A DNA stretch of 24,165 nucleotides from a virus (lineage: Duplodnaviria; Heunggongvirae; Uroviricota; Caudoviricetes), in the IMG/VR virus record IMGVR_UViG_648276649_000003. The stretch is one strand, 5' to 3'. Every line of letters starts with the position of its first letter. Position 1 is the stretch's first letter. The notes beneath the pieces were generated by a model, which was given only the letters and a program-made list of their open reading frames with translations, was not told the DNA's origin and did not search any database. Both the position numbers and the translations under genes were made by a program. Positions 3,621-5,070 of this stretch are shown here, one piece after another.

Positions 3621-3640
3621 TTGCATAAAACGTGCTACGT
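3621..3640 (+). repeat. Hairpin-repeat copy A (partial): TTGCATAAAACGTGCTACGT
   Basis: Shares the core TTGCATA-NN-ACGTG(G)CTACG with copies B and C; lacks the 5' stem arm. Confidence 0.5.
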
Positions 3641-3998
3641 TCCTTTATCGACAGGTCAGGTCACCGCTCACCCGCCGACGAGAAAGCAACACTGACATGC
3701 TAAAGCAAAAAATAGATGAATAAGTTGAGTTGTGCATATGTAGCCTGACCGTCACAAAGTATATGGTGTCTGTACCAGTAAGATGATGGCCGGACTCTTT
3801 AAAAACGAGCTGACCTGCACAATACAGGATGGACTTAGCAATGGCTGCTCCTGGCACATAGCAGACCAGAGACACTGGCGTAAAGCCATGGAGGATCGGT
3901 GGGAGGAGGTAAAAATCCTCTCATGCAAAAAATACGCAAAATCGATAACAGTTGGAAATCATTCAATACTCGCACTATCGGAAGTTCACCAGCCAGTC

Positions 3999-4044
3999 GT
4001 AGCACGTTCTTGCATATGACGTGGCTACGGGTTTCGAGACCGAC
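3999..4044 (+). repeat. Hairpin-repeat copy B: GTAGCACGT-TCTTGCATATG-ACGTGGCTAC followed by GGGTTTC
   Basis: Imperfect palindrome (about 9-bp stem, 11-nt loop); about 33 of 36 positions identical to copy C in the same orientation; sits upstream of the GIY-YIG gene. Confidence 0.55.
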
Positions 4045-4221
4045 CCGATCATCAAACGAAACATAAAATTAGCTCACATTATGAGGAAAGGTATCTTTTT
4101 GCGCTATGTAAATTCAAAGGGTTAGCCTCATTTTCCCGATGGCTTTCTCAACACTACTAGTTGTGAGCCCTTGCAATGTTCATTAATATACGTCTCACAA
4201 ATAATTCACAGATATTGCAAA

Positions 4222-4995
4222 ATGGATATTACTGAGTTTCCTTCTGGAGTAATTGAACACCTTGGCTGGTATGTATACCGATTGATTGATCCTAGGGACG
4301 GAAGCACCTTCTATGTAGGGAAAGGCAAAGGTAACCGCGTATTTGCCCATATGCGCGGTGAAGTGGCAGCGGCTGATGATGACGAGTTACTGAGCAACAA
4401 GCTAAAGCAAATCAGAGAAATAAGATTAGCGGGACTTGAAGTTATCCATGTCATCCATCGACATGGAATGACTGATGAAAAGACGGCGTACGAAGTTGAA
4501 GCAGCACTTATTGATGCCTACCCTGGGTTAACGAATATCATGAATGGTGCTGGCAGCAATGAATTCGGCGCCGCGCATGTCAAAGAGTTGATAGCAACAT
4601 ATCAACCCGAAACCATAACATTTCATCATAAAGCATTAATGATTTCCGTTAACAGAAGTGCAAAGGATTCAGAGCTTTATGATGCGGTTCGATTTAGCTG
4701 GCGCATTAATGTCTCTCGCGCCAGCCAAGCAGAAGTTATTCTTGCTACTGTAAGGGGAATCGTTCGAGGGGTTTTCATTGCTGATAAATGGCTCAAATCA
4801 ACACGTGAAAATTTCCCTACGATGAAATACTGGGACGAGGATCCTGACTTTGAGGCAACACAAAGTTCTCGCTATGGTTTTGAAGGTCGAGAAGCCCCAC
4901 CTGAAATAGCAAATCTTTATCTTGGAAAAAAAATACCAGATGAATTAAGAAAAAAAGGAGCTATGTCCCCGGTCCGTTACTCACCTAATTTTTGA
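4222..4995 (+). CDS. GIY-YIG nuclease-domain protein with uncharacterised C-terminal domain (about 150 aa)
   Basis: ORF track starts at a TTG (4171); the first ATG is 4222 (MDITEFPSG...). N-terminus carries the GIY-YIG signature: YVYRL...[14 protein letters not shown], downstream YEVEAAL (catalytic Glu position) and NIMNG (Asn). Visibly AT-rich relative to neighbouring phage genes. Confidence 0.7.
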
Positions 4996-5020
4996 GTCTT
5001 TAAGTGATAAGCATAAACCG

Positions 5021-5070
5021 CAGCACGATCTTGCATACGACGTGCTACGGTTTCATTTATCTCCGACCGG
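5021..5070 (+). repeat. Hairpin-repeat copy C: AGCACGATCTTGCATACGACGTGCTACGGTTTC
   Basis: Lies between the convergent stops of the GIY-YIG gene (4995) and pin (5053); palindromic stem AGCACG/CGTGCT with conserved loop TCTTGCATA; T-rich after the stem, so a possible bidirectional terminator. Confidence 0.55.

Follow-up and report, generated by a model that had tools for sequence, protein, structure and literature searches.

We have analyzed a stretch of DNA of 24,165 nucleotides (nt), held in IMG/VR as the virus record IMGVR_UViG_648276649_000003 (from here on, the window), and in it a palindromic hairpin that appears in direct copies around a nuclease gene next to the DNA invertase gene pin. 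The DNA of the window is that of E. coli. A first-pass annotation, made from the letters alone, had described three copies of the hairpin (A, B and C) as possible boundaries of a cargo cassette. Our analysis indicates that copy B is only the 3' third of a longer non-coding element with two helices (the unit). The unit is a new, unannotated and structurally conserved family that is located beside variable genes in thousands of genomes. The explanation that we favor, and consider probable, is that the hairpin is the intrinsic-terminator stem-loop of this unit, which would act as a terminator or insulator and double as an anchor for recombination. The architecture proposed is a -10-like box, a first helix with a loop of 33 nt and the hairpin followed by a run of U.

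A conserved two-helix element with hairpin B at its 3' end

The three direct copies are real. A repeat finder placed 3609-3634, 3998-4023 and 5019-5044 in one family, and the core TTGCATANNACGTG occurs exactly three times in the window, always on the + strand (0.15 expected, and none of 100 shuffles reached three). A longer core of 23 nt, AGCACGNTCTTGCATANGACGTG, is found twice where 0.00 occurrences are expected. An ungapped comparison of copies B and C over 26 nt gave 88% identity, and A and C share 75% over 32 nt. Both B and C fold strongly. The energy of B on the + strand was -25 kcal/mol (z -3.6 against shuffles), and that of C was -23 kcal/mol on the + strand (z -4.3) and -29 kcal/mol on the - strand (z -4.8), where it folds best. 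Copy A did not fold into this hairpin on either strand (z about 0 on + and -1.2 on -). The locations given before for the other two agree with the coordinates found here: B is 190 nt upstream of the annotated start of the GIY-YIG gene (4222) and C, a hairpin without the unit, lies between the stop of that gene (4993-4995) and the pin stop codon (5053-5055), which it abuts.

The first-pass annotation missed that hairpin B is merely the end of the unit at 3935-4042, itself preceded by a conserved block from 3852. Conservation in other loci extends over approximately 85 nt to the left of the hairpin, with the consensus GTAAAATCGGTAACGGCTGGAAATCATTCAATACTCGCACTATCGAAAGTTCGCCAGCCAG followed by the hairpin, so that the unit measures about 90-110 nt across copies. 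It starts at the -10-like box, which reads CGCAAAAT in the window and GTAAAAT in most copies. Then comes helix 1, formed by the pairing of 3950-3955 with 3989-3994 around the conserved loop of 33 nt. The similarity among copies starts abruptly at GTAAAATC, with at least 7 different upstream contexts, and stops abruptly just past the stem, with at least 12 different downstream contexts.

Both helices are backed by covariation, while their loops are invariant. In an alignment of 41 diverse copies, 13 of the 19 pairs had compensatory double changes, compared with 6.5 +/- 1.4 in shuffled alignments (0 of 500 reached this number) and with at most 7 pairs in controls in which the alignment was slid. 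The Citrobacter copies are an example, with a changed inner stem (CCATGC/GCATGG) and the loop TCTTGCATAC kept. In general, the central 13 nt of the hairpin are constant across genera while the stems vary, as had been noticed for the loop in the window, and about half of the copies have a bulged stem base. We built a covariance model (R1) from the unit alignment. With this model, B scored 108.4 bits (E 2.7e-28) over model positions 1-108, with both helices and both conserved loops present. Copy C scored 35.9 bits through the hairpin part only, and is not a full member of the unit family. Copy A gave no match at E values up to 10 and is not a member either.

A coding explanation was considered and rejected. 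An open reading frame of 78 amino acids on the + strand (3783-4019) and a 'capsid protein' pseudogene called by PGAP on the - strand (3931-4017) both cross the unit. However, the homologues have indels of 1 nt, lost ATG codons and shifted frames. The pseudogene fragment is annotated across the unit in many genomes, and the conserved non-coding element seems to have given rise to these calls as an artefact of annotation. No Rfam family was found for the + strand of the unit. A literature search retrieved no papers on the hairpin sequence itself, and searches on exchangeable effector loci and on ea47/ea31 gave no description of the element.

The element is widespread. B-like matches were found in 3683 of 5426 complete E. 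coli genomes, with up to 7 per genome, and at least 120 contigs of IMG/VR contain the exact core of 22 nt. The unit was also found in species representatives of Escherichia, Shigella, Citrobacter and Pantoea. In phage lambda itself (NC_001416), the interval from ea31 to ea47 contains the conserved 5' block (block 3), the unit and the hairpin (~24150-24350), on the strand that is read from int. The lambda unit scored 108.6 bits with R1, even though lambda was not included in the model. A second copy, diverged and reduced to the hairpin, lies between the stops of ea47 and tfa (~22573-22606), so that ea47 is bracketed in lambda like the nuclease gene in the window. Neither of the two copies is annotated in the NC_001416 record. 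In K-12 MG1655 the unit is found in the Qin prophage (1632469-1632577), 192 nt inside the annotated prophage boundary. A degenerate copy (45.5 bits) was located at the end of prophage PP6 of strain E2348/69 (locus L152 of our survey, 34908-35001). There the terminator hairpin is replaced by another stem-loop, with loop GCGAG, followed by a run of U, indicating that helix 1 and its loop can be retained when the terminator changes. Table 1 gives the coordinates of the features of the window.

Table 1. Position, strand and description of the features found in the window.
Feature	Position	Strand	Description
IS66-family element, complete	255-2870		HTH transposase, TnpB_IS66, DDE transposase of 523 aa; left of flxA
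Qin-type flxA-ydfV' fragment			Between the IS66 element and the region under study
Copy A	3609-3640	+	Decayed relic; loop and right half kept, left half now the palindrome CCGCATGCGG
Block 3	3852-3934	+	Conserved 5' block preceding the unit in one common context, including phage lambda
Unit	3935-4042	+	Two-helix non-coding element of ~108 nt; hairpin B is helix 2, the 3' third
Hairpin B	3997-4030	+	Stems TCGTAGCACGT / ACGTGGCTACGG with one bulged G; loop TCTTGCATATG; GUUUC next
Attachment-site relic of a tRNA-Ser-integrating relative	4025-4160		4025-4046 core relic, then phage arm up to the putative PD-T4-3 promoter region
PD-T4-3 (GIY-YIG nuclease), cargo gene	4222-4995	+	PADLOC PDLC04031, E 2.2e-140, full length; Pfam LEM-3_GIY-YIG
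Hairpin C	5015-5053 (hairpin 5018-5050)	both	Stems CCGCAGCACG / CGTGCTACGG; loop same as B
pin, DNA invertase gene	5053-5607	-	Resolvase and HTH_7 domains; annotation
Mu/e14-type baseplate and tail genes			Right of the invertible tail-fibre segment
Tyrosine integrase	21544-22707	+	Reads toward tRNA-Thr (22722-22797)
proA			Last in window order, past tRNA-Thr

Cargo beside the unit and the origin of the bracket

The location of the unit follows a rule. It is always found on the strand read by int/dinI transcription and adjoins the tail-fibre/invertase end. To its left there is one of the following: sequence of the lambda-type attP-sib/tI region, integrase genes, a DinI-like gene or a phosphatase gene. 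On its right, the opposite strand encodes pin or tail-fibre-assembly functions, which follow immediately in about one third of the loci and after intervening cargo in the rest. We could name at least 12 classes of right flank and 7 of left flank, and they are combined with each other. Specifically, the pin flank appears with six left contexts, and the context that follows tI in lambda appears with seven right contexts. The association with variable gene content that the first-pass annotation had suspected is thus borne out, and such recurrence argues against an element present only here or one that is only the 3' end of pin homologues. 

More than 12 different sets of cargo follow the unit. 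The classes include an IpaH-type E3 ligase, NleC, an EcoRII-type restriction-modification (R-M) pair, a GGDEF protein, an SDH-type protease, acyltransferases and PD-T4-3. The latter is the GIY-YIG gene of the window, and its match to an anti-phage defence protein identifies the slot as a hot spot for defence and virulence cargo. This gene has the attributes of a moron, with a non-coding upstream region of 190 nt, which may hold its promoter, and hairpin C downstream. In related loci the same slot is empty or has other genes.

As a general rule, bracketing of cargo by two copies did not hold. Direct hairpin copies flank PD-T4-3 in the window and in about 20 other loci, but in the loci surveyed two-copy bracketing was limited to PD-T4-3, PD-T4-3 with the EcoRII-type R-M pair (hairpin spacing 4171), the SDH-protease gene (locus L046) and ea47 of lambda. 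Most cargos have a single hairpin copy and their own, unrelated 3' terminators. Neither are the three copies of the window equivalent as boundaries, since A is a dead relic. The first-pass annotation was right that A keeps the right half of the hairpin, but it starts at 3609 and not at 3621, and what stands for its left half is another palindrome. Its place in the flxA-ydfV intergenic region, immediately behind the stop of ydfV (3645-3647, - strand), is comparable to that of C behind the stop of pin. The left stem is lost and nothing variable is bounded by A. K-12 is among the 1202 genomes in which the sequence was found, invariably beside ydfV, with an identity of at least 95%, and phage PhiR42_1 has it as well. 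Being inside the Qin-type flxA-ydfV fragment, it bounds no cargo.

The B/C bracket itself can be traced to another event. The DNA at 4025-4046 resembles the anticodon-stem part (the inner end) of a tRNA-Ser core, with 18 of 22 positions matching. In five loci (L049, L052, L070, L080 and L086) we found a 3' fragment of tRNA-Ser of 66 nt, an arm of about 130 nt as in the window, PD-T4-3, hairpin C and pin, one after the other. An annotated tRNA-Ser gene matches this fragment at 100% identity, and 5422 of the 5426 genomes contain a match to it. As the DNA to the right of B starts with this attachment-site relic, the bracket is better explained by mosaic joining than by integration of a cassette at B, and B appears to be the resident unit. 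The block 4025-5053 (relic, arm, PD-T4-3 and hairpin C) would have been imported from a relative integrating at tRNA-Ser, in which C would already have parted PD-T4-3 from pin. At the junction, a short similarity is seen between the 3' flank of the hairpin, CTACGGTTTC, and the core, CTACTCCGGTTTTC. Other variants have a half-deleted hairpin ahead of PD-T4-3. The junction may have been formed by integration at a secondary site or by illegitimate recombination. A target-site duplication or a crossover in the loop is disfavored by the covarying stem halves of B together with the relic at the right junction.

On the other side of the unit, the Qin-type ydfV fragment is joined to block 3 within a short common stretch, CTGGCACAnAGCnGAC (3852-3866 compared with ydfV of PhiR42_1), which suggests that block 3 may have originated from a 5' region similar to that of ydfV. 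Homology with a second class of genomes begins at about 3835-3851 of the window.

Evidence for termination and competing explanations

The most direct evidence for termination comes from K-12. Published Term-seq data of MG1655 contain an 'orphan' 3' end on the + strand at 1632571 or 1632574, in three conditions (LB at an optical density, OD, of 0.4, LB at OD 2.0 and M63). The coordinate is that of the base after the U5 tract of the Qin hairpin, and the sequence printed with the data is the Qin copy. A second orphan 3' end on the same strand (1632744/1632791) lies just downstream of this copy. The opposite strand is used in Shigella, where the RNA CssrB, about 180 nt by northern blot and with a 3' end that is predicted only, ends in the shared hairpin read on the - strand. 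These data support the terminator role proposed in the first-pass annotation.

The pairing itself also depends on the strand. The outer stems of the aligned hairpins had 42 G.T pairs, tolerated on the + strand, versus 11 A.C pairs, and 10 of these 11 were in C-type copies without unit beside pin, in which they equal G.U pairs on the pin strand. This bias fits folding of the + strand in the hairpins linked to a unit and of the - strand in C. A bias of this kind points to a function at the level of RNA and argues against a site in duplex DNA. Copy C follows the pattern, with a C.A mismatch on the + strand that becomes a G.U pair on the -. The AAA before C and the TTT after it provide a hairpin followed by a U-run whichever strand is read, with the 3' tracts UUUCAUUUAU on + and UUUAUGCUU on -. 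C is likely a bidirectional terminator for PD-T4-3 (+) and pin (-).

Putting these data together, we suggest that in temperate phages of enterobacteria the unit occupies the edge of the accessory region that is closest to int and att, facing the end of the late operon of tail fibre and invertase. The unit would most likely end and insulate transcription at this convergent junction, the + RNAs stopping at its hairpin, as we infer for B in this strain too. Where cargo has been inserted, a hairpin-only copy such as C would stop both the cargo and the pin transcripts. Since the same ~110 nt are common to many otherwise different phages, the unit would also provide a patch of homology by which the flanking cargo could be exchanged through ordinary or phage-mediated homologous recombination.

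Several observations weigh against this explanation. The 3' end mapped in vivo belongs to the K-12 Qin homologue and not to B or C. The U-run of B has only three U (GUUUC), and a simple terminator scan called none of the copies, because their loops exceed 8 nt. In the common arrangement of unit, hairpin and pin there is no U-run after the hairpin on the - strand, making termination of pin doubtful there. A good -35 box is present in some contexts only. Besides, a plain terminator needs neither a conserved hairpin loop nor the 33-nt loop of helix 1, and this points to an additional function.

Such a function could be that of an RNA. In its stronger form, the idea is that the unit is primarily the gene of a trans-acting small regulatory RNA (sRNA) of about 88 nt, whose loops would be seed or protein-binding regions, the hairpin being merely its terminator and the adjacency of cargo incidental. 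In its milder form, the unit would be an overlooked regulatory RNA, even in lambda, that controls or insulates the expression of cargo or int. This milder form seems to us possible although not the likelier case, and the stronger one unlikely, even if it overlaps with the terminator and anchor explanation rather than excluding it. Conservation begins abruptly at the -10-like box, which in three independent families of contexts is preceded at a distance of 16-18 nt by a hexamer resembling a -35 box (TTGAAT-18-TAAAAT; TTGAAC-16-TACAAT). The orphan 3' end at the K-12 hairpin, the two covarying helices with invariant loops, the wobble bias to one strand and a + strand not covered by any Rfam family are also what would be expected of an sRNA. 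However, most contexts (dinI, lambda tI, block 3) have no -35 box, and both C and the second hairpin of lambda retain the hairpin without the rest of the RNA. At the degenerate copy of E2348/69, the RIL-seq tables of enteropathogenic E. coli gave no entry, an unrelated fragment of the + strand being the only one nearby. The Cappable-seq supplement has no entries for the K-12 locus.

Much less probable is that the hairpin, with its conserved loop and bulge, works as a structure-specific recombination signal, a phage counterpart of the attC sites of integrons, at which circular cargo cassettes would be inserted and excised. This would cover the capture and exchange of single-gene defence and virulence cassettes from lambda to prophages with Mu-like tails. 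The direct hairpins around the few cargos named above would then be explained, as would the break of homology at the edges of the element and the bulged stem base. However, no candidate recombinase travels with the element, and the neighboring integrases are ordinary phage integrases. The sites used by Pin (5669-5689 and 7482-7502) are unrelated in sequence. The single copies beside most cargos, the tRNA-Ser relic at the right junction of B and the strand bias are equally difficult to reconcile with a dedicated cassette system, and the covarying stem halves of B indicate that it is not a recent hybrid site. Cassette integration at B is therefore not supported.

Still less credit can be given to a palindrome acting as double-stranded DNA, bound by a phage regulator or a nucleoid protein, or extruded as a cruciform, with the loop as recognition site. 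It would account for the central 13 nt kept across genera while stems change. Nevertheless, in a duplex or a cruciform both strands matter equally and the excess of G.T over A.C, with a type of mismatch that depends on the gene served, would be unexpected. An RNA 3' end maps to the hairpin, and no DNA-binding gene is consistently linked to it. The protein-recognized site of the first-pass annotation, if taken as duplex DNA, is thus not supported. Finally, that there is nothing special here, only chance similarity or a conserved 3' end of pin, is very hard to believe in spite of C abutting the pin stop and about one third of the copies being 12 nt from a pin 3' end, because the core counts against shuffles exclude chance, pin-mcrA loci of the e14 type have no hairpin, and many copies, among them the lambda and K-12 Qin units, are away from any pin 3' end.

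Gene layout, related systems and implications

The closest genome (Combat11I9) has chromosomal LysR and SDR genes on the side where the window has the IS66 element. A promoter-like site close to the sigma-70 consensus (TTGACA-16-AATAAT, 11 of 12 matches) was detected at 3574-3601 on the + strand in the flxA-ydfV intergenic region, pointing rightward into copy A and antisense to ydfV. Beyond pin, the crossover sites form an inverted repeat of 21 nt, AAACGTTGGTTTGGGAGAAGG, around an invertible segment of about 1.8 kb that contains two alternative pairs of fibre-tip and assembly genes. We searched for the attR of a thrW prophage, and no repeat of the tRNA-Thr of 13 nt or more was found within positions 1-22000.

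We have compared the element with known systems. Like the bidirectional intrinsic terminators, C is GC-rich, has an A-run before and a T-run after, is located between two stops 58 nt apart and folds on both strands. Unlike in them, the hairpin loop is longer than usual (9-13 nt) and conserved in sequence across genera. In most copies a conserved helix is fused to the hairpin on its upstream side, and there is no U-run for the second strand. The lambda sib/tI retroregulator is similar in being a conserved hairpin read by int transcription past attP, at the start of the b region. Its sequence differs, and the unit is a separate element, which in lambda-type contexts either follows tI immediately or is found at up to ~90 nt from it on the downstream side. 

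The attC sites of integrons are also imperfect, bulged hairpins in direct orientation flanking promoterless or single-gene cargo. However, in our element the sequence is conserved and not just the structure, most cargos have one copy, and the junction is explained by the attachment relic. The neighboring recombinases are a serine invertase and phage-type tyrosine integrases, none of them an integron integrase, and no GTTRRRY core was seen in the hairpin by inspection. The crossover sites of Gin, Pin and Hin (26 bp with AAACC..GGTTT half-sites, as an inverted pair) have no similarity to the hairpin, and Pin acting on the hairpin was discarded for this reason and because its own sites are elsewhere.

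Among known RNAs, the closest is CssrB (Rfam RF02799), the 3' hairpin of which is the shared hairpin on the - strand. Copy C scored 32.4 bits with this model and B 19.6 bits, below the gathering score of 76 for the 180-nt model, as the alignment is limited to the terminal hairpin and leaves out 129 model positions; membership of the window copies was rejected. A full copy of CssrB in S. flexneri (locus L143, 5575-5757) scored 151.6 bits. CssrB lies on the strand opposite to that of the unit, where it is antisense to the leader of a gene for an ipaH-type effector. The same S. flexneri locus also has matches to C4 antisense RNA and isrK at 963-1151. The sRNAs of E. coli prophages (PasA-D, AgvB, AsxR, DicF and IS009) resemble the unit in being short, in their terminator hairpins and in having multiple copies per genome, but none of these Rfam families was found at the unit. 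PasB, which is flanked by IS009, was considered as the unit itself and discarded, since its sequence differs and its location is between tail genes I and J.

The concept of the phage moron or exchangeable effector locus is said to come from Juhala and Hendrix in 2000 and from Tobe in 2006. As in morons and other accessory loci (the lambda b region), the cargo described here is autonomous, located between the tail-fibre genes and att, and flanked by a promoter region and a terminator. What differs is that, in many lineages of phages, the edge of the locus on the int side is marked by one specific, conserved and structured element of ~110 nt.

If our explanation is correct, the unit marks the int-side edge of an accessory locus in a large share of enterobacterial prophages, a locus that holds defence genes (PD-T4-3, R-M), type III effectors (IpaH, NleC) and surface-modifying enzymes. 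Searches for hot spots of cargo and defence could then use it in practice as a landmark. The shuffling of cargo would be explained by a patch of homology on one side and by the conserved tail-fibre and pin genes on the other. The Shigella 'sRNA' CssrB would end in a shared phage terminator. Moreover, the unit would be an unannotated structured RNA with a 3' end mapped in K-12 and a copy in the b region of lambda, and its loops suggest a function beyond termination.

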